The notes under the pieces were generated by a model that ran no database searches, was not told the origin of the DNA, and saw only the letters and a program-made list of their open reading frames with translations. The position numbers were made by a program, and so were the translations under genes. A stretch of DNA of 64,000 bases, from IMG/VR virus record IMGVR_UViG_3300005512_000007; one strand, given 5' to 3'. Origin of the DNA: an uncultured virus (IMG/VR IMGVR_UViG_3300005512_000007). Its lineage: Duplodnaviria > Heunggongvirae > Uroviricota > Caudoviricetes. Of the stretch, positions 2,770 to 59,933 are shown piece by piece (within the stretch, counting starts at the first letter, position 1; each line of letters opens with the position of its first letter).

Positions 2770-3766
2770 AGGTGACCAGTACACCACTAACGGTAAAACG
2801 TACCAGTGGGACGGCACCGTGTGGGGCGTGTACGGCACGTTCTCCCGCGACTTCACCGCCTCCGACACCGCCCCCCTCAACGTCGCAGACGGCCACATAT
2901 GGTATAGATCAGATCAGTCACAAACCCTGATCAGATATGACGGTACATGGGTAGAAGTTGGTTCTGCCGGAGGGTTTGATTCTTCTTCTACTAGTTTTCC
3001 TTCTTCGTTGGATTCTGCTACAGGGTTTGCTGCTGTTGAGGCGTTGCAGGCGAAGGTTGGTGTTGATGGTTCTGCTGTGACGACCAGTATTGATTATCAG
3101 TTGAATACTGGTTATCGGTATCATTCGACTGTCTATTTCACTTCGTCGGGGACGTTCACGAAGGCTTCGTATCCGTGGCTTCGAGCGATCCGTGTTCGAC
3201 TGGTTGGTGCGGGAGGCGGTTCCGGAGCAACTACCGCGACGCTAAACGCCACGGGCGATTCGTCCACTGCGGGCGGCGGCGGTGGCGGCGCTTACGCCGA
3301 ATCATTTATTAACGATATAGCATCACTCGCCTCTTCGGTGACCGTCACGGTCGGCACCGGCGTTTCGCAGTCCGCGGGCGGTTCGTCGTCGTTCGGAAGC
3401 GGCGAAGCCTACGAAGTAAGCGCCGGAGGTGGCGGAGCGGGACAAGTCGGCGTCAGTCTCACGACACCGTTTACCCGTGAAGGCGGCGACCGTGGAGTAA
3501 CCGGAACCGGCGATCTCGTCATACCGGGACAATCCGGCGGGAACGGCGTGATCCTTGTCGCCGCTTCGCAAGGTTACGCCGGTCTCGGCGGTGCCTCCCA
3601 TCTGTCCGGTACCCCGGTCCAAAGGGTCAACGGAGGCCTGAACGGTGACGACGGCGAGAACTACGGCGGCGGAGCAACTTCGCCGCTCGCCATCAATCAG
3701 TCAGGCGCGAGAAGTTCGGGAACTACCGGAGGAGATGGCATTGTTATCGTGGAGTTGTTTGCATGA
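2738..3766 (+). CDS. glycine-rich tail fibre/minor tail protein
   Basis: MAIDFPDSP N-module; FTSSGTF...VRLVGAGGGSG...GGGGGG...GGDGIVIVE Gly-rich domain. Confidence 0.75.
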   Translation: MAIDFPDSPTVGDQYTTNGKTYQWDGTVWGVYGTFSRDFTASDTAPLNVADGHIWYRSDQSQTLIRYDGTWVEVGSAGGFDSSSTSFPSSLDSATGFAAVEALQAKVGVDGSAVTTSIDYQLNTGYRYHSTVYFTSSGTFTKASYPWLRAIRVRLVGAGGGSGATTATLNATGDSSTAGGGGGGAYAESFINDIASLASSVTVTVGTGVSQSAGGSSSFGSGEAYEVSAGGGGAGQVGVSLTTPFTREGGDRGVTGTGDLVIPGQSGGNGVILVAASQGYAGLGGASHLSGTPVQRVNGGLNGDDGENYGGGATSPLAINQSGARSSGTTGGDGIVIVELFA

Positions 3767-3981
3767 AATACGCAGTAGTCAATAACAACGGCGAAGTCTT
3801 GAACGTCATCGTATGGGACGGTAAAGAACCGATCTCGACCGGAGAAGGGACGACGCTCGTCGAACTGCCGACGTTCGTTGATAGCGAAGGTGCGACGACG
3901 TATTGCGGCGGCTTCGGTTGGACATACAACGGCACTGATTGGATCGCACCGCCGCCCGCAGAGGAAGAGGAGTTGATCTGA
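3763..3981 (+). CDS. small fibre-associated protein
   Basis: MKYAVV..G.V.NVIVWDG...GWTYNGTDW, a type commonly found after Gly-rich fibre genes. Confidence 0.6.
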   Translation: MKYAVVNNNGEVLNVIVWDGKEPISTGEGTTLVELPTFVDSEGATTYCGGFGWTYNGTDWIAPPPAEEEELI

Positions 3982-5204
3982 TGGCAATTGACTTTCCAGA
4001 TAACCCATCAGTAAACGATACTTTTACTGCCGGGGGCAAAGTTTACCAATGGGATGGAACCGTATGGGAAATCTATGGTCCCAACGTGTCCCCCGGCACC
4101 TTCAAGATTGATGATGTCAACAACAGGGTCGGTATCAACAATGCGTCCCCCTCTCAAAATCTTGATGTCATCGGAAACACCCAACTTAGAGATGTGTTCA
4201 TTGATTCGGTTGCTAACTGGAACTATGGCCAGTTGCGGATCAGCCGTAACGCATCTAATACGGCGAATACGAAGATTGTGTCGGTTCTGTTAGACGGCGA
4301 TTCGCCAGATGACACGGACCTCTACTCAAATGCCAACGTGCTGTTGCGGACAGATTCTGCGCCGACGAGCGGTTCAACTTCTGCTGCATTGAACGCAGGC
4401 ATTGAGATCACCGCTCCGGATAGCGTGCGGTTTGGTACTAATGGCGGCGAGAAAATGCGCATTGATTCCAGCGGCAATGTTGGAATCAACACAACCCCCT
4501 CATACTGGCTTGACGTAAGAGACAATGACCTTGGGCAAACTTTAGGTGACTCATCTGATCACCTTCGTTTGTCTAGTCCTGTGGTTGGCAATACATCGAT
4601 GCTGTACGCATCCAACAAGCGGTTCGCTAATGGGACGGGCTGGCAAAACACAAGTTGGAGAATTCAACATAAAGTTGATAACACGGATATGGCTTTCGTG
4701 GAGTTCAACCCGGATGGTGCGGAACGGGGGATTTCTTTCGGTACCGACAATGTAGAACATGTTGTTATCGACAGCAATGGCCGTATGGCGGCTGCAAGCC
4801 AGCCATACTTCTATGCATATTTGAGTTCTAATATTTCGTTCGATTCCAATACCCAAAATACAACGGTTCCCTATAACACAACTAGCGCAAATGTTGGCAA
4901 CTGCTACAATACGTCTAACGGCTTATTTACTGCACCCGTTTCAGGAAGGTACGTTTTTACTGGAGGGATTTACAGTAATACTGCTTCTGTATCCATATCT
5001 CAGTTGTGGTTTGTTAGAAACGGCGGCAGAGTCGGTACGTTCTGCCTTGATGGTGGCAGTGGCCCCAATAGGCAGGGTACCGGCTACATCTATTTAGAGG
5101 CTAACGACACGGTTGGTGTGCACCCTTGGGCTGATGGGGCAGGAACAATAAACATCGTGGCCTCAACTTTTCACACCTACTGGTCTGGTTCTTTACTCGT
5201 TTAG
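3981..5204 (+). CDS. tail fibre/receptor-binding protein with C1q-like domain
   Basis: Start at the TGATG overlap (MAIDFPDNP); VGIN repeats; CYNTSNGLFTAPVSGRYVF. Confidence 0.75.
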   Translation: MAIDFPDNPSVNDTFTAGGKVYQWDGTVWEIYGPNVSPGTFKIDDVNNRVGINNASPSQNLDVIGNTQLRDVFIDSVANWNYGQLRISRNASNTANTKIVSVLLDGDSPDDTDLYSNANVLLRTDSAPTSGSTSAALNAGIEITAPDSVRFGTNGGEKMRIDSSGNVGINTTPSYWLDVRDNDLGQTLGDSSDHLRLSSPVVGNTSMLYASNKRFANGTGWQNTSWRIQHKVDNTDMAFVEFNPDGAERGISFGTDNVEHVVIDSNGRMAAASQPYFYAYLSSNISFDSNTQNTTVPYNTTSANVGNCYNTSNGLFTAPVSGRYVFTGGIYSNTASVSISQLWFVRNGGRVGTFCLDGGSGPNRQGTGYIYLEANDTVGVHPWADGAGTINIVASTFHTYWSGSLLV

Positions 5205-5212
5205 GAGAAGCA

Positions 5213-5476
5213 ATGGCAACTTACACAGTTACACTTACAGATGCAGAAGATAAAGCGCTTCGTTACGTAGCGGTAGATCCTCAGGATTGGATCGACAATG
5301 CTGTACATAACCGTTGTCGTCAAGCCATCGACCAAATCTACGCTGAAGAAGTCGGACGCATGACCGACGACCCCGACATCGACAGCATCCCCGCCAACAA
5401 AGAACAGGTCGTTCTAGACGCACAGATCCAGTCTGCTGCTGACCGCCAAGCCGCTGCGGAGAGCGAGATGCCATAA
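5213..5476 (+). CDS. fibre-associated small protein (copy 2)
   Basis: Near-identical to 2475..2738; AGGAGA RBS. Confidence 0.65.
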   Translation: MATYTVTLTDAEDKALRYVAVDPQDWIDNAVHNRCRQAIDQIYAEEVGRMTDDPDIDSIPANKEQVVLDAQIQSAADRQAAAESEMP

Positions 5477-5616
5477 TGGCTATCGACTTCCCTGACTCTC
5501 CAGCAGTCAATGATACCCATGCTTACATCGAGCGCACATGGAAGTACGACGGTACTGACTGGGTCGAAATCACCCCCGAACCAGCAGAGGAAATCACCCC
5601 CGAACCAGCAGAGTAG
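5476..5616 (+). CDS. 46-aa mini fibre module (N-terminal MAIDFPDSP module only)
   Basis: MAIDFPDSPAVNDTHAYIERTWKYDGTDWVEITPEPAEEITPEPAE*; TAATG overlap with the upstream gene. Confidence 0.55.
   Translation: MAIDFPDSPAVNDTHAYIERTWKYDGTDWVEITPEPAEEITPEPAE
5566..5613 (+). repeat. perfect 24-bp tandem duplication
   Basis: gaaatcacccccgaaccagcagag x2. Confidence 0.95.
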
Positions 5617-5654
5617 GTATACTAAATCACCCCGCACTACAACTGGAGGATTAC

Positions 5655-5792
5655 ATGAACGTCGATTTGAATGAAGTTATGAGAGAATTGGAGCAGCGCT
5701 ATCCACGTGAACTTACGATCTGCGTACAGGCTGTACAGATCAGGCTTCTTCAGGGGGCGCTAGAGGACCGAGAGGCTGAGGAAACCGACTAA
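5655..5792 (+). CDS. hypothetical 45-aa protein
   Basis: GGAGG RBS; TATACT -10-like box upstream; MNVDLNEVMRELEQRYP... Confidence 0.55.
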   Translation: MNVDLNEVMRELEQRYPRELTICVQAVQIRLLQGALEDREAEETD

Positions 5793-5863
5793 CCGCCCCA
5801 TATCTACATCCTCAGCCCTAACCAGTGCTACACTCGTAGAGAAACCCGATTCAAGGAGTACAA

Positions 5864-6109
5864 ATGGCTGCTAGCAAGAACACCACGAAGATCGCTGAGG
5901 TCCTCATTGAGGACGAGGCGGAGGCCCCGGCCCCCGCTCCTCAGCCCACTGTCGTGTCCCCCACGACCAAGAACGCCAAGATCAAGGGGACGTGGACCAT
6001 GTACTACGGTACTGGTAAGTGGGACTTCGTGGATGGTCATCGTTATGACCTTCCTCTTGACCTTTTCGAATACCTCAAGCGTTCTGGCAATATTTATGAC
6101 ACTTTGTGA
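5864..6109 (+). CDS. hypothetical virion-module protein
   Basis: AAGGAG RBS; TACACT -10 upstream; ends GNIYDTL*. Confidence 0.7.
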   Translation: MAASKNTTKIAEVLIEDEAEAPAPAPQPTVVSPTTKNAKIKGTWTMYYGTGKWDFVDGHRYDLPLDLFEYLKRSGNIYDTL

Positions 6110-6132
6110 AACATGTATGATACGCTGGTCTC

Positions 6133-6663
6133 ATGAAGACCTGTTGTACGTGCAAAGCGGATAAGCCACTGTCAGAGTTCGGTAAGAACAAACGCCAGAA
6201 AGACGGGCATCAACGACGCTGCTTAGAGTGCGCTCGTAAAGCCTCTGCTGAGTACTACCGCAACCACAAAGATCGCGCCACTGCCGCCACCCGTGATTGG
6301 GCTAGGCGCAATCCGGACAGAGTCAACGCCAATAGTAAGCGGTGGCGAGAAGCCAACCCAGAGAAGATGGCGCTCGCTCGCAAGAAGTCAAACGTACGCT
6401 TCTTTTACAACCTTACTCTTGAAGAGCACGAAAAGATGCTACAAAATGGTTGTCAAATTTGCGGGTCCCATGACCGTCTGCACGTAGACCACGATCATTC
6501 TTGTTGCGATGGCCGTTCTAAAGGATGCGGTAACTGTGTTCGTGGTATTCTCTGTTCAACATGCAACACTGGAATAGGTTTCTTGAGAGACGACCCGGAT
6601 CTTCTTAGGAAGGCCATCGCTTATCTTGAGGGCTACACCGGAGCACAGCACGACACTCTCTGA
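6133..6663 (+). mobile_element. Endonuclease VII-family homing endonuclease
   Basis: CQICG...LHVDHDH...VRGILCSTCNTGIG..RDD; N-terminal CxxC zinc module. Confidence 0.85.
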
Positions 6664-32009: not shown

Positions 32010-32451
32010 CGACATCGCCCCCACCACCCACAAGCACATCGCTTGCTGGTTTGAGGACCTCATCATCACTCGCATGGAGGAGCCTGTGAAGCGCCGGTTC
32101 TTCCAGCGTGAGAAAGAGGTAACAGAAGAAGAGTGGGTCAGGGCAGAGGTGCGGAAGTGGAAGATCAACGAGATGCCACTCAAGTCTCTCCACCACATGG
32201 TGAACCACCTCAACCTCGGGGTGGAGGTGTACACCTACATGGAGGATGAACTCGCAGATGCCGCCACTCACTGGCTGGCACGCAAGGGCATCTCCGTCAC
32301 GGTCTACGCCTACAACGACCTCAACGATCTGCGGGACGACTTCAAGTACAACCGCGACGTACACACACTGTTCACGCCGTACGAGGATGACGCCGCCATG
32401 CTGGGTATGCGTGCTACTGTCACCAGACCCGATGGGACGTTTGGTATCTGA
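31999..32451 (+). CDS. hypothetical protein (possible degenerate HAD fold)
   Basis: Coupled ORF; phage-like codon usage. Confidence 0.6.
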   Translation: MEGNDIAPTTHKHIACWFEDLIITRMEEPVKRRFFQREKEVTEEEWVRAEVRKWKINEMPLKSLHHMVNHLNLGVEVYTYMEDELADAATHWLARKGISVTVYAYNDLNDLRDDFKYNRDVHTLFTPYEDDAAMLGMRATVTRPDGTFGI

Positions 32452-33701
32452 TGGCATCTATTGAGCACCTCGTAATCAGCAAGATCATTGAGGAGCAGTC
32501 GCTACACGAGGCTGTTCGCTCCGGCATCAAGCCGGTCTACTTCGCCAACGAGTGGGAGAAGGTGTACCAGTGGGTGCTGGATTACAACAACCAGCACGGG
32601 GCCGTCCCCTCCGAGCGAGCCTTCCACGTCGCCTACGGTGACATTGACATCGAGGACACGGGTGCTGAGACGTTCAGCGGCCTCTTCGACGAACTGCTCA
32701 ATGCGTACCGCTCTCGCACCGTCATTGCGGCGGTGTCGGATGCTATGGGGCCACTCGACAAGGACGACGTGTCCGAGGCCATGGCGATCCTGTCCAAGGG
32801 TCTCCAGTCAGCCAGCGCTGATACGGCACGGCTCCGAGACTTCAACATCATCGAGAACTGGGAAGCCCGCTTTGAGCGCTACAAGGAAATGCGTGATACC
32901 CCTAACGCTTTGCGTGGTATCCCCACCGGCTTCTCTGGGTTGGATCGCATCACTCACGGACTTCGCCCCCAGCAGTTCGTCGTCATGGTGGGCGAGCCGA
33001 AGCGAGGCAAGTCGCTGTTTGAGTTGATCATGGCTAACGCCTGCCACCGACACGGCCTGCGCCCCATGTTCATCTCCTTTGAGATGTCCGTAGCCGAGCA
33101 GGAGTCACGCTACGACGCACTCAACGCCAAGGTTCCCTATGACCGCATCCTCAGCGGCCAGTTGTCTGAGGCTGAGATGGAGCGCATCCGCAAGTCCATG
33201 GTTCTCAGCAAGAACATGCAACCGTTCATCATGTCTGAGGACAGCAGTAGCCTGACCACGGTCAGCGCCATTGCCGCCAAGATTCAGGAGTACCAGCCCG
33301 ACGCTGTGTACATCGACGGCATGTACCTCATGGACGACGAGCACGGGGAGCCAAAGGGCAGTCCGCAGGCTCTGACCAACATCACCCGGGGTACGAAGCG
33401 CCTCGCTCAGCGGTTTGATATTCCTATCGTCGGAACGTCGCAGGTGCTATCTTGGAAACTCAACAACAAACGCACCCGAGCGATCACGGCGGACTCGATT
33501 GGCTACACATCATCTTTTGTGCAGGACTCTGACTTGGTACTGGGCGTTGAACGCAATCCAGACCTCGACGACCAAGCCATTATCCGGGTGGTAGAGGCTC
33601 GTACAGCGGGCCACGCAGAAGTCCATGTCAAGTGGGACTGGCAGACCATGGAATTCTCCGAAATTGATGAAATAGACGAAATTGATCCATCTTTCGATTA
33701 A
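32451..33701 (+). CDS. dnaB: DnaB-like replicative helicase
   Basis: GIPTGF..LD, GEPKRGKS, SFEMS, IDG.YLM, QDSD. Confidence 0.92.
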   Translation: MASIEHLVISKIIEEQSLHEAVRSGIKPVYFANEWEKVYQWVLDYNNQHGAVPSERAFHVAYGDIDIEDTGAETFSGLFDELLNAYRSRTVIAAVSDAMGPLDKDDVSEAMAILSKGLQSASADTARLRDFNIIENWEARFERYKEMRDTPNALRGIPTGFSGLDRITHGLRPQQFVVMVGEPKRGKSLFELIMANACHRHGLRPMFISFEMSVAEQESRYDALNAKVPYDRILSGQLSEAEMERIRKSMVLSKNMQPFIMSEDSSSLTTVSAIAAKIQEYQPDAVYIDGMYLMDDEHGEPKGSPQALTNITRGTKRLAQRFDIPIVGTSQVLSWKLNNKRTRAITADSIGYTSSFVQDSDLVLGVERNPDLDDQAIIRVVEARTAGHAEVHVKWDWQTMEFSEIDEIDEIDPSFD

Positions 33702-33711
33702 GGTTAATCCC

Positions 33712-34176
33712 ATGACAACATGTGCTTTTGATGGATGCGAGAGAACCTCTACTAGGAAGGCGCTGTGCGATGGTCACTACCGGCAGAAGCACACGAGAGG
33801 AGAAGAACTGCGCCCCCTTCTGCTGGATGAGTCTTTTGAGGTAAGATTGAAACGTCTTATTACGGTCGACAGCGCCACAGGATGCTGGAACACTAAAGCA
33901 CCTAGGGCACACATGTCGTGGAAGGGACGAGTAGACATTGTCTACAGACACGTTTACCGAGAGATGGTGGGTCCGCTGATCCGAGGTACTAGGTATGACC
34001 GTGGCGAATCTGTCGATCACTTGTGCCTCAACGAGCATTGCGTCAACCCCGACCACCTACAGAAGGTGACGGCGAGAGAGAATACCAAACGTATGCACGC
34101 CCATACAGCCCTTCGGGCACGCATCTCAAGACTGGAATCCCAGATTCGGGAACTTGGACAGGAGCCAGTAAGTTGA
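33712..34176 (+). mobile_element. HNH homing endonuclease
   Basis: CAFDGC..LCDGHY; GCW; VDHLCLNEHCVNPDHLQKVT..EN. Confidence 0.85.
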
Positions 34177-34193
34177 CCCCTCATTCGACTGAG

Positions 34194-34400
34194 ATGGACA
34201 TCGTGGAACGCTTGCGCGACGTTATAGAAATGTCGTGGGATGGAGAAGAAGTGACTGATCCACTGTGCGAAGAAGCCGCCGCCGAGATCGAACGGTTGCG
34301 TGCCGTCGTGACCCGGCAAGGGATGAAACCCATGGTCGCATACAGCGAAGAAGCAGGAATGTACGACAACCAACTCTCACAGGAGGCCCGCCGTGGATGA
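34194..34400 (+). CDS. small hypothetical protein (DIVERLR/EAA.EIERLR type)
   Basis: MDIVERLR...EAAAEIERLR. Confidence 0.6.
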   Translation: MDIVERLRDVIEMSWDGEEVTDPLCEEAAAEIERLRAVVTRQGMKPMVAYSEEAGMYDNQLSQEARRG

Positions 34401-52268: not shown

Positions 52269-52468
52269 TGAACGCCACCACGCAGAAGGCGCTGAACACC
52301 GCCCTGCTGGTGGGGTGTATCTACGAAATCATTGCTCTCGTGTCCCACGCAGTCCCCACGATCACTCGCCTTCTACGCATACTGGGTTCTAAGCCCTTTG
52401 GTAAGGCGCTGGTATGGATGTGGTGTGGCTACATCTCGTGGCACTTCTTGGAGCCTTTGGACTCGTGA
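52268..52468 (+). CDS. small membrane protein
   Basis: YEI.AL...PTIT...W.GY.SWHF. Confidence 0.6.
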   Translation: MNATTQKALNTALLVGCIYEIIALVSHAVPTITRLLRILGSKPFGKALVWMWCGYISWHFLEPLDS

Positions 52469-52941
52469 TGCTTACACAGGAACGTCTGAAAGAGTTGCTG
52501 GAATACGATCCCGAAACGGGCGTGTTCGTGTGGTTGCAGACGACTAGTAACCGAGTCAAGGTGGGCTCAGTTGCTGGGTGTAGGCGTAGGGATGGCTACC
52601 TATTGATCAGGCTGGACGGCAAGTTGTATCTAGGACACCGTCTTGCATGGCTGTACGTCCACGGTGAGTGGCCCGCCAACGTGATTGACCACATTGACCA
52701 GAACAAGTCCAACAACGCCATCAGCAACCTACGGGACACCAGCATGGCGGTCAACGGCCTCAACAAGGACAAGCCTCGCCGCCATAACACGACGGGCTTC
52801 ATGGGAGTGTCTAAGCGTAAGGACAGGTTCTTAGCGCAGGTCAGCAGAAAGCGAGGGCTTACCAAACTATTTGATACGCCCGAAGAAGCGCACGAGTGGT
52901 ATCTGGCTACTAAAGCCACCCTACTTGAGGAGTTACTCTAA
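52468..52941 (+). mobile_element. HNH homing endonuclease with AP2-like C-terminus
   Basis: LTQERLKELLEYDPETGVF, HRLAWLY..G.WP..IDHID.NK.NN.I.NLR, NTTG..GV, F.T.EEA. Confidence 0.88.
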
Positions 52942-56998: not shown

Positions 56999-57732
56999 GA
57001 GTGCTACTCGTAGGCGACACCCACGGTGATCGCCAGTTCGTATCCAACGTGAACCGGCTCGCCAAGACTCAGCGAGCGCAGTACGTCATCCAGTTGGGGG
57101 ACTTCGGCTACTCCTTCCCTGAGGCTGTGCTGACCTCGATCAGGACGTGGCTCGATGCTGACGAGCGCCGTAAGTGGCTGTGGCTCGACGGGAATCACGA
57201 CCAGCATGACTACATCCGCTCTGAGATATGCAAGGGCAAGCACCCCAAGAAGCCGGTGGCCCACTTCCACGACCGCATGTACTACTGCCCCCGTGGGAGC
57301 ACGTTACGTATCGGTAAGAAGAAGGTGCTGTTCCTTGGGGGTGCTGTCAGCGTGGACAAGGCTCGTCGCACGCAGGGCGAGAACTGGTGGCCTCAGGAGT
57401 CGATCAACACTGCCGACGTGTACCGAGCAATAGACAACGGCAAGGGAGCCGACGTGCTCCTGAGCCACGACTGTCCTGACACACTCGATATCAGGCGCTG
57501 GCTTCGCTCCAACGGATACAAGAACGACCGTGACTCACAGCAGAACCGTATGGCTATCAGAGCAGTCGTTGATGAACTCGATATCCCCGAGGTGTACCAC
57601 GGGCACTACCACCACCGGTACACCGCTCACTACGGCAACACGCTGGTCGAGGGTCTGGGTGCTAACTACGCACGGGGCGAGCACTCGCCCAAGGCGACGC
57701 TCGATCACAACTGCCTGCTACTGGACTGGTAA
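56995..57732 (+). CDS. metallophosphoesterase
   Basis: GDTHG, GDFG, GNHD, SHDCP, HGHYH. Confidence 0.9.
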   Translation: MRVLLVGDTHGDRQFVSNVNRLAKTQRAQYVIQLGDFGYSFPEAVLTSIRTWLDADERRKWLWLDGNHDQHDYIRSEICKGKHPKKPVAHFHDRMYYCPRGSTLRIGKKKVLFLGGAVSVDKARRTQGENWWPQESINTADVYRAIDNGKGADVLLSHDCPDTLDIRRWLRSNGYKNDRDSQQNRMAIRAVVDELDIPEVYHGHYHHRYTAHYGNTLVEGLGANYARGEHSPKATLDHNCLLLDW

Positions 57733-57739
57733 CGCAGAA

Positions 57740-57763
57740 GAGCAGGGGCCGAAGCCCCTGCTC
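57740..57763. terminator. terminator hairpin at the strand convergence point
   Basis: GAGCAGGGGC-CGAA-GCCCCTGCTC (UUCG loop on the minus strand). Confidence 0.8.
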
Positions 57764-57823
57764 AACTACTGCTACTTCCGTTGGGTCTGTCCAGACACCA
57801 CTCCAGACAGTGGGAGTAACCCC

Positions 57824-58315
57824 TCAGGAGGTGGCGACCACGGGCCAGATGTACTCCAAGTATTTGAGAGCACTATCCAGTTTCTTTTGATCTTTCAGCC
57901 ACTTCTCCAGATGGCCTAGCGAGGGGTTGCACGTTCCGCATAACAGCCCTCGCACTTTACCTGTGTCGTGGCAATGGTCGATGTGGAAGGAGAGCGAGTC
58001 TACTTCCTCGGTGCATATGGCGCATATGCCATTTGCTTTCTTCACCAACTCCTCGTACTCGTCCCTGCTCAAACCGTATTTGCGAAGACGCTCGGCAAGC
58101 CGTCGTTTAGCAACCCACTCTGGGTCTTCTCGCTTCACTGCCATGTACTTACGTTGTTTTTCCTTACCGTCCACTTGGTAGCGAATGGCCTGCTTATCGG
58201 AGTCGTAAGTTTTCCTGCTGTACGCATTACGGCAGGCTTTACATTGCCCTGCTCTACGCATTTCTTGCGATGGCTTGTCTTGGTTGCATTGGTTACATCT
58301 CATACGGCCAAACAT
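57824..58315 (-). mobile_element. Endonuclease VII-family homing endonuclease
   Basis: KYGLS..EY, CAIC, HIDHCHDTGKVRGLLCGTCN. Confidence 0.88.
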
Positions 58316-58328
58316 ACACTAATGGTAT

Positions 58329-58797
58329 TTACTTATGGCCCACAAATGGCCCCCAAACGTAATCCAAACCGAGTGGGGTGTCGGGCCAGATCGGCCCGTA
58401 GAACTCGGGGTCCTTGCGGATGAGGTTGGACCGGTGCGAGATCATGATGTCGTTGAGGAACGACGGAGGAGTGGGGTCGTCGCCGTAATGGGTGTGCATC
58501 TCCAACACGCCACGGAAGCGCTCCTGTAGCGAGTCCTGATACCCACGGCGCTTCCACTCAGCGCAACAACGGAACCCGTAGTGGGCGAGGGATGCGATGC
58601 GCCCCTCCCACATGCGAGTGGCTGGGTGGTTGACCCACCCCTTGTGCTCCTTGGGGTTGCCGTCGTTGTCTACGCCACGGAGGACGTTGAGAATCTGCCA
58701 CGCTTCTACACGTTGCTTGCCGAGGTCAGAGACGCCGGTAATCCAGTGACAGGAAACCGGCGTACAGGTCAGTACCTTCTGGTGCGAAGGTCTGCAT
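58329..58797 (-). CDS. pyrimidine-dimer DNA glycosylase-like (MSMEG_6728 family), interrupted by a 7-nt insert (pseudogene or recoded)
   Basis: MQTF...LDYRRL / GKQRVEA.QIL, GWVNHPA.RMW, EW.RRGY.D, SHRSNL.RKDP.FY; stop TGA at 58728-58726. Confidence 0.8.
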
Positions 58798-58811
58798 ATT
58801 TGACCACCTCC

Positions 58812-59300
58812 TTATGGTATGTCATTGGGGTCGCCCCCTAGTTGTCTGATGTGATCTTCCAATAGTTCTATGCGCCTTGTCAAGTATCTTGCGAACCTGA
58901 GCCGACGCATGTTCTCATACTGCGATACCGCTTCTAAGTGCTCAGGATTACAGCACTTGGTATTTCGGCATAGGTGATCTACTTGGTCACCTTCTTGCAG
59001 TGGGGCTACATAGTGTTCGTATGCCCAGCGATGAGCCATGTATTTCCTACCCCCGTGCCACAGTTGACCGTAGCCCCTACCTTGGTCCGCTCCTTTACCT
59101 GAGCCTCTACCGTTGGCGGTAAATACCCAGCACCCATCGTCCTGTTTGACAATGGAGCGTAGGAACCTCTCCTCAGCGGTCTCGTGAGTCCTGATGGGAG
59201 TTAGGTCGTGACCTCTCGACTGTTGCGCCCAGTGACTGTTACACAGCCCCTTAGCGCAGTGAGGCTTTTCACAGCCGGGGAATGAGCATTGCTTGTTCAT
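58812..59300 (-). mobile_element. HNH homing endonuclease
   Basis: CSFPGC..GLCNSH; GCW; GYG; AHR; VDHLCRN..CCNPEHLEAV...EN. Confidence 0.88.
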
Positions 59301-59361
59301 GTCGGTACCTCCTCTACGAGGCTACCACACGATGGGTAGGTTTGTAGAGGAATGATACCTG

Positions 59362-59415
59362 TTAGTGGTGGAATCCAAGGTCGAGGTCTGTGCCCTCGGG
59401 GACGAATGTCTGCAT
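59362..59415 (-). pseudogene. orphaned 5' stub of the glycosylase (MQTFVPEGTDLDLGFHH*)
   Basis: AGGAG RBS; 12 of the first 15 residues match the ORF starting at 58797. Confidence 0.85.
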
Positions 59416-59476
59416 GGTGTGCTCCTGTTGGTATGGGTGGTGTGAATGGTTTGCCGGATTTGGGGTGCGCCCTATT

Positions 59477-59605
59477 TCAATCTTGTAGTTCCATCTTCAC
59501 TCCACCGCCCGTGTGCTTGGAACACGTAGGTGGATGTGTTGGTTTGACGTAGACAGTGATGGTCTGTCCACACCTGTTGCATTTGTACGTTGAGCCTTTC
59601 GACAT
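59477..59605 (-). CDS. small zinc-ribbon protein
   Basis: CNRC...CSKH; GGAGG RBS. Confidence 0.55.
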   Translation of the reverse strand: MSKGSTYKCNRCGQTITVYVKPTHPPTCSKHTGGGVKMELQD

Positions 59606-59639
59606 GGTTCCTCCCTTCTCGACGTACGAAGGTAGCAGA

Positions 59640-59933
59640 TCAGTCGAGATCAAAGATGATCTCCTCGGTAGCGAGGTCGCCCCCGTCCTCAAAGACGAGG
59701 CTGAACCCGATGCGGTTGAGATCTCTGGCGACGTTGTAGATGCCGTTGACCCAGAGCAGGACCGTCTCATCGAACTCCATGAGTTGGTCAGAGGGATCGT
59801 CCCAGTTCGGGTTGAAGTCAGACCCGACCACGATGTTGGTCGGAGTCACATCGTCGTTGATCTGGTTACGCACCACGACGGTGATGAACTGGATGAAACC
59901 CTCGGGGACACGTATGACACCGATATCAAACAC
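59640..59933 (-). CDS. acidic hypothetical protein
   Basis: GTG start overlapping the upstream gene end. Confidence 0.5.
   Translation of the reverse strand: MFDIGVIRVPEGFIQFITVVVRNQINDDVTPTNIVVGSDFNPNWDDPSDQLMEFDETVLLWVNGIYNVARDLNRIGFSLVFEDGGDLATEEIIFDLD

Follow-up and report, generated by a model that had tools for sequence, protein, structure and literature searches.

The window, the whole 64,000-nucleotide (nt) stretch analysed here from the uncultured caudoviricete record IMG/VR IMGVR_UViG_3300005512_000007, contains at positions 57824-59415 an interrupted gene for a predicted pyrimidine-dimer DNA glycosylase, all parts of which lie on the minus strand. Read along this strand, the locus consists of a stub of the glycosylase gene, a leader, an HNH_3 endonuclease gene, a new Shine-Dalgarno sequence and start codon, the body of the Pyr_excise glycosylase gene and a gene of the EndoVII family (Table 1). 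Every piece of the order given in the earlier note on this DNA is present, as are its two different endonucleases, which belong to the HNH_3 and EndoVII families, respectively. All three genes score well above the curated Pfam cutoffs. By comparison with uninterrupted ("empty") alleles such as that of locus L003, the HNH_3 gene is placed after codon 17 of the glycosylase gene and the EndoVII-type gene ten codons before its stop. The stop codon of the stub (TAA, 59364-59362) comes from the inserted HNH element, in whose leader the HNH gene's own Shine-Dalgarno sequence (GAGGAGG, 59314-59308) is also found. The new Shine-Dalgarno sequence (GGAGG, 58811-58807) abuts the HNH stop codon and precedes a new ATG at 58797, and the EndoVII gene starts 13 nt past the end of the glycosylase body. 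In the region 57600-59800 a promoter scan revealed no sigma-70-like sites and three terminator-like matches are found, all on the opposite strand, while no transposase was detected at the locus in a Pfam scan. Among 50,697 phage records the locus has no megablast match, and tblastn recovers distant glycosylases only, at most 45% identical.

Table 1. Features of the interrupted glycosylase locus in the window
Feature	Positions	Strand	Basis or remark
Stub of the glycosylase gene with its original ribosome-binding site, start codon and codons 1-17 (MQTFVPEGTDLDLGFHH)	59362..59415	-	ATG at 59415
Leader of the HNH element, 64 nt	59301..59364	-	No match to L003, no counterpart in the empty alleles
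HNH_3 / His-Me finger endonuclease gene, 162 residues, intact	59300-58812	-	Pfam HNH_3
Replacement 5' end carried by the HNH gene	58704..58811	-	Foreign-type coding up to the last difference at 58704
7-nt insertion	58722..58731	-	Alignment to L003
Perfect 8-bp inverted repeat (ACGCCGGT, 16 nt, ACCGGCGT)	58732..58763	-	Folding computation
Glycosylase body, +1 frame (LGKQRVEAWQIL... to stop)	58329..58724	-	Pfam Pyr_excise
Replacement 3' end carried by the EndoVII gene (LDYVWGPFVGHK, stop TAA 58331-58329)	58329..58366	-	52.6% identity to L003
EndoVII-family (DHHRN / His-Me finger) gene, 163 residues, ending ...ALKYLEYIWPVVATS and stop	57824..58315	-	PF02945
Displaced original glycosylase 3' end ((L)EYIWPVVATS and stop), C-terminal tail of the EndoVII open reading frame	57824..57858	-	35/35 nt to L003

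The target gene would code for a phage enzyme of the Pfam Pyr_excise / NCBIfam MSMEG_6728 family. The product of the empty allele L003 scores 113.4 bits against NF038085 (MSMEG_6728_fam; cutoff 100) over profile positions 1-148 of 149 and 62.3 bits against Pyr_excise from position 1, and the read-through product of the window matches Pyr_excise from residue 22 only. The glycosylase falls into no PHROGs family at E <= 1e-5, and a sequence search of the PDB returned nothing for it or for the HNH protein. Glycosylase loci were drawn from a scan of IMG/VR with the glycosylase body (best 80 of 122 confirmed loci) and a scan of metagenome contigs with alignment A4 (best 80 of 436 loci). A regular-expression search identified an uninterrupted open reading frame (ORF) beginning with [MV]QTF in 103 of the 160 loci; in the other 57 the start residues differ or a contig end truncates the gene, and of these L175 was examined further. 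In seven loci (L003, L004 and L170-L174) the uninterrupted gene has 152 codons and reads MQTFVPEGTDLDLGFHHLDYRRLGKQRVE...PLGLEYIWPVVATS, followed by the stop codon. L003/L170 and L004/L172 are the same contigs in two collections, and several of the seven share an identical 600-nt stretch around the gene. A 102-residue protein of the L176-type allele (P0300), where the family match extends over about 72 residues and is followed by unrelated sequence, appears to represent another interrupted or frameshifted glycosylase allele.

The exact empty alleles fix each junction in the window to the base. Three blastn blocks connect the window to L003, namely 60214-59365 to 3148-3985 (92.5% identity), 58797-58353 to 3935-4372 (89.4%) and 57858-56000 to 4359-6216 (95.5%), showing synteny with the empty alleles on either flank; the similarity stops exactly at 59365 on the stub side and resumes at 57858 on the right flank. 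As these blocks overlap, L003 3935-3985 and 4359-4372 are each represented twice in the window. The stub (59415-59365) matches the start of the intact gene in all seven loci at 51/51 nt, and the final 35 nt of the EndoVII ORF agree at 35/35 nt with L003 4359-4393 and are present in all seven. The LEYIWPVVATS tail, in which the earlier note had seen a resemblance to a glycosylase ending, is thus the end of this very gene. Further upstream, about 340 nt in the window (60552-60214) and about 190 nt in L003 (2956-3148) are unalignable between two conserved blocks and represent a small replaced segment.

The two ends now attached to the glycosylase body are distinct from those that were displaced. 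The 5' patch (58797-58747) shares 64.7% identity (33/51 nt) with L003 and the adjoining 58746-58700, including the 7-nt insertion, 74.5%. Identity then rises to 99% (58699-58600), 96% (58599-58500), 90% (58499-58440) and 95.9% (58439-58367), before falling to 52.6% (20/38 nt) in the 3' patch (58366-58329). The resident-type core (58699-58367) is 95.8% identical overall, with 14 differences in 333 nt, a level like that of the flanks, which range from 91 to 99% per 200-nt bin with a single bin of 78% just upstream of the stub. Because identity forms such a mosaic along the gene, the core is resident sequence and its two ends alone are foreign. The composition follows the same pattern, with a GC content of 62.8% in the core (78.8% at third codon positions in the body frame), 52.6% in the HNH gene, 50.3% in the EndoVII gene and 47.4% in the 3' patch. 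It had been proposed that both original termini were displaced and replaced, an idea that would have failed had the stub and tail been no closer to the empty-allele termini than the patches are; they are far closer (51/51 against 33/51 nt and 35/35 against 20/38 nt), and the proposal stands.

Two other accounts of this layout can be weighed against the mosaic. On either side of each element stands a copy of a short target-gene stretch, as if these were target-site duplications of a transposase-like event, or chance resemblances. The two copies of a pair, however, differ from each other (33/51 and about 20/38 nt), the displaced one matching the empty alleles completely (100%) and its partner being foreign, and no transposase is present. 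As identities of 51/51 and 35/35 nt are not due to chance and the patch copies diverge, this account was rejected and its probability is negligible. Alternatively, a single foreign cassette carrying the HNH gene, a whole foreign glycosylase gene and the EndoVII gene may have replaced the middle of the resident gene. This would agree with the lack of any allele carrying only one element among the loci and with the protein P0216, which resembles both patches in starting with MQTFAPEGTDL and ending with YVWGPFS. The 333-nt core is, however, 95.8% identical to the empty allele (99% over a 100-nt stretch), as the flanks are, against 53-75% for the patches; its GC content is 62.8% against 50-53% for the nuclease genes; and the two nucleases differ in family, relatives and contexts. 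A single replacement is consequently very improbable.

Two unrelated free-standing homing-endonuclease genes have in all likelihood invaded this one glycosylase gene independently, each bringing along a foreign copy of the end that it displaced. The HNH element would have brought a ribosome-binding site and a foreign copy of about the first 30 codons, and the EndoVII element the foreign last 12 or so codons with their own stop, its ORF now running in frame into the original tail. During mixed infection, each nuclease would cut the glycosylase gene of a phage lacking it, and the carrier phage would serve as the template for repair of the break. On the side of the glycosylase gene, homologous repair would yield a short conversion tract, the patch, while on the outer side, where the two phages would share no homology, joining would be illegitimate. 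Such one-sided homing would leave the original end behind as a stub, and a patch differing from the resident sequence at the target would protect the carrier from its own nuclease. The EndoVII/glycosylase junction falls inside the codon of Leu153 (TAC T|TG GAG). The EndoVII family continues as YLE in four of 14 relatives in alignment A2, and TGGAG, a microhomology shared by the conserved YL(E) codons of the family and the LEY codons of the target, is thus a plausible joining point.

The HNH gene is predicted to encode a putative free-standing homing endonuclease. Its product matches Pfam HNH_3 with 47.6 bits (cutoff 24.8; 1.3e-12) and zf-His_Me_endon with 26.6 bits, just below the 27-bit cutoff, falls in PHROG HNH endonuclease families and keeps 30/30 invariant columns of alignment A3 (20 sequences). 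The gene is optional, being absent from the seven empty loci (L003, L004, L170-L174; flanks 92-95% identical) and present in the window and the identical L175. The closest relatives in the protein collection share 68-76% identity with it, and one of these bears the source annotation "homing endonuclease". When IMG/VR was scanned with the HNH protein alone, two loci with distant relatives were recovered. In a profile scan (best 80 of 595 loci), 11 loci match nearly the whole protein at 36-46% identity, and in eight of these (L090-L095, L098 and L113; six distinct sequences) a Pyr_excise gene lies downstream on the same strand. The glycosylase gene starts 5 to 91 nt past the end of the HNH match in L090, L091, L095 and L098, and about 0.85-1 kb downstream, behind three small ORFs, in L092/L113 and L093/L094. 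No glycosylase was found in the other 76 loci of the HNH/EndoVII neighbourhood scan. Several of the glycosylase-linked HNH loci differ in their upstream genes, and the HNH lineage is thus recurrently paired with one target gene across different genomes.

At L090, a stub (MVNTFVTSDSVVECAKALDYR) running into unrelated codons is followed by the HNH gene and a new start (MVNTFITSSSVTECAKNLDRL / MVNTFITSSSVTECAKNLDRLRLGKQRVE). The two copies of the gene start share 39/63 nt and 15/21 residues, and L090 is an independent repeat of the architecture of stub, HNH gene and new start; beside the other HNH-adjacent glycosylase genes no stub was detected at the DNA level. The L090 stub ends after the LDYR codons and that of the window just before LDYRRL, four codons apart. 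As both breakpoints fall at the start of the most conserved stretch of the family, where LGKQRVE is invariant in alignment A4, the HNH nuclease may cut there, with the LD-RRLGKQRVE coding stretch as its probable target. The glycosylase of L098 (2968-3459), directly downstream of an HNH relative, contains RLNKNALEG where RLGKQRVE is invariant among the close relatives in alignment A4; the gene may be degraded, or a change at the protein level may have allowed it to escape the nuclease.

The EndoVII protein matches PF02945 with 74.3 bits (cutoff 23.6; 7.5e-21) over residues 77-154 of 163, and D113, H114, H116, R122 and N130 are invariant in alignment A2. The family ends in this alignment with the invariant Y152 and L153, followed by zero to seven variable residues. 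What follows YL in the window is EYIWPVVATS, the final ten residues of the glycosylase itself, read in frame, and the matches of relatives from cultured phages end at residue 153-154, with a single row (H56) reaching 161. The gene call in the protein collection starts the protein at Met19 (145 residues); since this start loses the first CxxC, the ATG at 58315 or 58303 is preferred. An EndoVII-type gene could also have been acquired by illegitimate recombination as a gene of benefit to the phage, for example a Holliday-junction resolvase, rather than as a selfish element. PF02945 includes true resolvases in the available part of the account of Fang et al. (2018, PMC6083498), no other glycosylase-adjacent case of this EndoVII lineage was found and the gene has no visible Shine-Dalgarno sequence of its own. 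The gene is, however, absent at this locus from all close phage relatives, the replacement gene end makes sense only if its arrival was the repair of a break in the glycosylase gene, and a second EndoVII-family gene, located among tail-fibre genes (6133-6663, plus strand) and 37% identical over 101 residues, is encoded in the window. Furthermore, a CxxC...CxxC region precedes the nuclease motif, which lies at the C-terminus, and the same source describes this arrangement as a trait of the endonuclease clade and not of the resolvase clade (PMC6083498). Acquisition as such a useful, non-selfish gene is highly improbable.

The distribution of the two nuclease genes bears on the search for alleles with no, one or two elements that had been suggested for this locus. 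Alleles without an element (the seven empty loci) and with both (the window and L175) were found, while none with a single element occurs among the 160 glycosylase loci. A tblastn search with both nucleases showed that neither adjoins the glycosylase gene in any of the 80 IMG/VR loci, two of which contain distant HNH-like matches about 3 kb away on the opposite strand. Among the 80 metagenome loci L175 alone has both nucleases and is identical to the window (100% over 6466 nt); L174 contains an HNH-like match (30% identical) 2 kb upstream and L230 a 23-residue nuclease match at a contig edge.

Several observations weigh against two independent homing events. The lack of single-element alleles is one of these, and L175 is perhaps not an assembly independent of the window's record. 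No donor of the 5' patch was found, the best sampled allele matching it at 51/69 nt and the resident type at 48/69. For the 3' patch a natural allele end of the same kind exists in P0216 (84% identical overall), which ends with LPYVWGPFS; the DNA of such a WGPFS-ending allele is absent among the fetched loci. Three of the 11 near-full HNH relatives (L096, L097 and L099; two distinct sequences) have no glycosylase gene nearby, and the proposed HNH target is read solely from the stub ends. The best relative of the EndoVII protein is only 41% identical, none of the five distant relatives recovered in an IMG/VR scan with the EndoVII protein (L085-L089) lies near a glycosylase gene and the link of this lineage to its target comes from a single case. 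Cleavage, target sites, repair pathway and immunity are deduced from the sequence. Finally, the 3' patch is joined to the core in frame and the 5' patch is not: the rebuilt gene is frameshifted, and the 5' patch does not preserve a working gene under standard decoding.

This frameshift also corrects the earlier description of new start and body as one ORF. In frame 0, the new ATG opens 23 codons (MQTFAPEGTDLYAGFLSLDYRRL) that end at a TGA (58728-58726), and the body lies in the +1 frame. Relative to L003 the patch contains 7 additional nt, placeable anywhere from 58731-58725 to 58728-58722 within CUC UGA C CUC in DNA alignment A1; it reads CGT CTC TGA CCT CGG here and the body continues from 58724. 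Because this insertion creates the TGA and shifts the frame, the rebuilt gene is not one ORF. The body frame contains no ATG, GTG or TTG before 58613, so that ordinary decoding would give a peptide of 23 residues and, at best, a fragment of 94 residues without the N-terminal third. Decoding of the TGA as an amino acid was rejected, since it would leave the frame uncorrected. The HNH ORF and the glycosylase body (58812-58329, minus strand) share a reading frame, with the HNH TAA and an open stretch without a start between them, and this is probably a coincidence.

The insertion lies six codons past the end of the window's stub and two codons from that of L090, inside the nearly invariant LDYRRLGKQRVE coding stretch. 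This stretch leaves little room for synonymous recoding, and apart from the insertion the patch and the resident sequence differ here at 4/36 nt. The insertion is present solely in the window and the identical L175, absent from the 103 loci with uninterrupted ORFs and from the six distinct HNH-adjacent glycosylase genes, and its two extra residues are missing from all 14 further sequences of alignment A4. The insertion is probably a lesion, or the mark of a pseudogene; recoding is somewhat unlikely and an assembly artefact improbable. Most likely it arose at or near the HNH target, for instance as a scar of end joining or by templated insertion; it would disrupt this target, leave the site uncuttable and, under ordinary decoding, kill the gene. 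A copy of CTGACCT occurs 43 nt upstream at 58772 and hints at templated repair; the chance that a given 7-mer recurs within 100 nt is about 1.2%, rising to at most about 5% when all four equivalent placements are counted.

The 7 nt may instead be a working part of the HNH element, a miniature bypass or immunity cassette that would break up the DNA target of the nuclease inside a protein stretch which cannot be recoded. Ribosomes would hop from the take-off codon CUC (Leu23) to the CUC 7 nt downstream and thereby restore the reading of the empty allele; a plain +1 shift at CUC UGA C would add two residues instead. Take-off and landing codons are matched (CUC 58731-58729, UGA 58728-58726, C, CUC 58724-58722), and skipping the 7 nt restores the spacing of the invariant LGKQRVE kept in the 14 other sequences. 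The region 58800-58690 folds with a minimum free energy of -38.2 kcal/mol (z = -2.59; one of 200 shuffles as good), and its perfect 8-bp stem-loop, which has no counterpart in the L003 stretch aligned in A1, ends directly before the take-off codon. The proximity of the insertion to both stub ends is also consistent with such a role. Against it, the insertion is private to the window and L175 and is found in none of the six distinct HNH-adjacent genes or the 103 uninterrupted loci. Short hops over stop codons are inefficient, re-pairing from CUC to UCU for a simple +1 shift would be poor, the features favouring a bypass were noticed after the fact and the CTGACCT copy upstream fits a repair scar equally well. 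A functional insertion is unlikely.

The model for such a bypass is the MobA/gene 60 pair of phage T4, where, in the available part of the report, substitutions near the MobA nick site did not block MobA by themselves but the gene 60 bypass insert blocked it (Manning and Atkins, bioRxiv 2022.08.31.505936). With only 4/36 nt differing across LDYRRLGKQRVE once the insertion is set aside, the patch in the window could be in a comparable position. In both cases an HNH nuclease is accompanied by an insertion that lies close to the (in the window, presumptive) nick site in a strongly conserved part of the coding sequence, and take-off and landing codons match, with a stop directly after take-off (bioRxiv 2022.08.31.505936). 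The gene 60 traits described there are, however, lacking in the window: the gap is 7 nt and not 50, and there is no take-off stem-loop of that kind, internal Shine-Dalgarno sequence or known nascent-peptide signal. The insertion is also not conserved among the relatives examined, and the resemblance would be one of logic only. That the HNH element of a myovirus of actinobacterial type has made a second, independent and far simpler invention of this solution is decidedly unlikely. If decoded, the insertion would be a new minimal case of translational bypassing tied to a mobile element; as a lesion, it would illustrate the cost of invasion, with a repair gene killed at the nuclease target.

Insertion of two nuclease genes with replacement of both gene ends can be compared with several known systems, as far as the available portions of the cited reports describe them. 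The design is that of the mORFs of fungal mitochondria, endonuclease ORFs that carry a foreign C-terminal gene segment, sometimes in phase, and leave behind the native C-terminus, which is closest to that of relatives (Beaudet et al. 2013, PMC3630166). Gene hybrids of this kind occur in atp6, atp9, cox2 and nad3 of Glomus sp., atp9 of Rhizopus and cox2 of Mortierella, and in atp6 of Allomyces macrogynus as cited in the same paper (PMC3630166). As there, a nuclease ORF in the window lies inside the terminal codons of a gene, a more divergent foreign end abuts the gene, in frame on the 3' side, and the native end behind the ORF is nearly identical to those of close relatives (PMC3630166). The hybrid trait of native termini that lie beyond the nuclease ORFs and are closer to relatives than the inserted termini is found at both ends of the locus. 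The mORFs, however, are mitochondrial, encode LAGLIDADG or GIY-YIG nucleases and replace C-termini in the available text, while the phage locus involves HNH_3 and EndoVII-type nucleases. Moreover, one element replaces a 5' end with its own ribosome-binding site and start, and both ends of one 152-codon gene are struck.

Replacement of a target-gene end without splicing is also known from the WHO elements of Torulaspora and Lachancea, which home into FBA1 and replace its 3' end at each integration (Coughlan et al. 2020, PMC7282813). Cuts by these elements can be repaired by gene conversion or non-homologous end joining (PMC7282813), and since the latter route exists there, a repair scar would fit the 7-nt insertion. 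They differ in being nuclear yeast elements with intein-like nucleases that replace the 3' end only and form clusters by repeated homing (PMC7282813). Among T-even phages, intronless homing similarly involves an optional HNH gene beside or inside a targeted conserved gene and co-conversion of the flanks (PMC2988022). From T4, one-sided homing that forms illegitimate junctions at sites of microhomology is known (Edgell, Gibb and Belfort 2010, PMC2988022), and both such junctions with one-sided homology and nuclease cassettes that lack promoters and rely on host transcripts have likenesses in the window. In T4, however, mobA in gene 60/39 and mobE in nrdA split the gene into two polypeptides, and no terminus is duplicated or replaced according to the available text (PMC2988022).

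The DHHRN residues of EndoVII-motif homing endonucleases and the C-terminal position of the motif in the endonuclease clade, as described by Fang et al. (2018, PMC6083498), recur in the window: D, H, H, R and N are conserved, the motif is C-terminal and the gene is free-standing beside its presumed target, as is that of F-CphI. This likeness concerns described features and not a sequence alignment with F-CphI. F-CphI, however, targets psbA with intron-based immunity (PMC6083498), while in the window the replaced gene end would immunise. In ICP1-like phages, small ORFs in homing-endonuclease-gene islands are recognised as pieces of full-length genes nearby (Barth, Dunham and Seed 2023, PMC10055350); a replacement terminus borne by a nuclease or a strike at both ends is not described in the available part of that paper. 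Searches of open-access and bioRxiv literature revealed no homing endonucleases in Pyr_excise or denV-type genes, and no phage gene with both termini replaced or with a 5'-end replacement that includes a new start.

The locus may thus provide a natural example of how homing-endonuclease genes settle in coding sequence without an intron or intein, by carrying a spare gene end. Because two unrelated nuclease families share the same design at the two ends of one 152-codon gene, this design would follow generally from one-sided break repair rather than being a family-specific trick. The HNH lineage that repeatedly accompanies Pyr_excise glycosylase genes further provides a testable pair of nuclease and target. 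For annotation, short "hypothetical" ORFs beside nuclease genes may be stubs of neighbouring genes, and nuclease ORFs may borrow their tail from the target.

Further genes of this kind are encoded elsewhere in the window, which represents a myovirus with a WhiB gene, suggesting an actinobacterial host, and at least five nuclease genes of homing-endonuclease families in 64 kb. Another HNH_3 gene is located at 52414-52941 (plus strand). A second HNH gene (33682-34176, plus strand), 35% identical over its full length to the one at the glycosylase locus, overlaps the end of a DnaB-like helicase gene (32451-33701). The helicase ends with ...EIDEIDPSFD, and another frame just past the stop of this HNH gene reads ...VDPSFD; the last 50 residues of the helicase match 34118-34189 in a tblastn search (E = 7e-4). 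The helicase locus (33682-34176, 34100-34200) looks like another displaced 3' end with a replacement borne by the nuclease gene.

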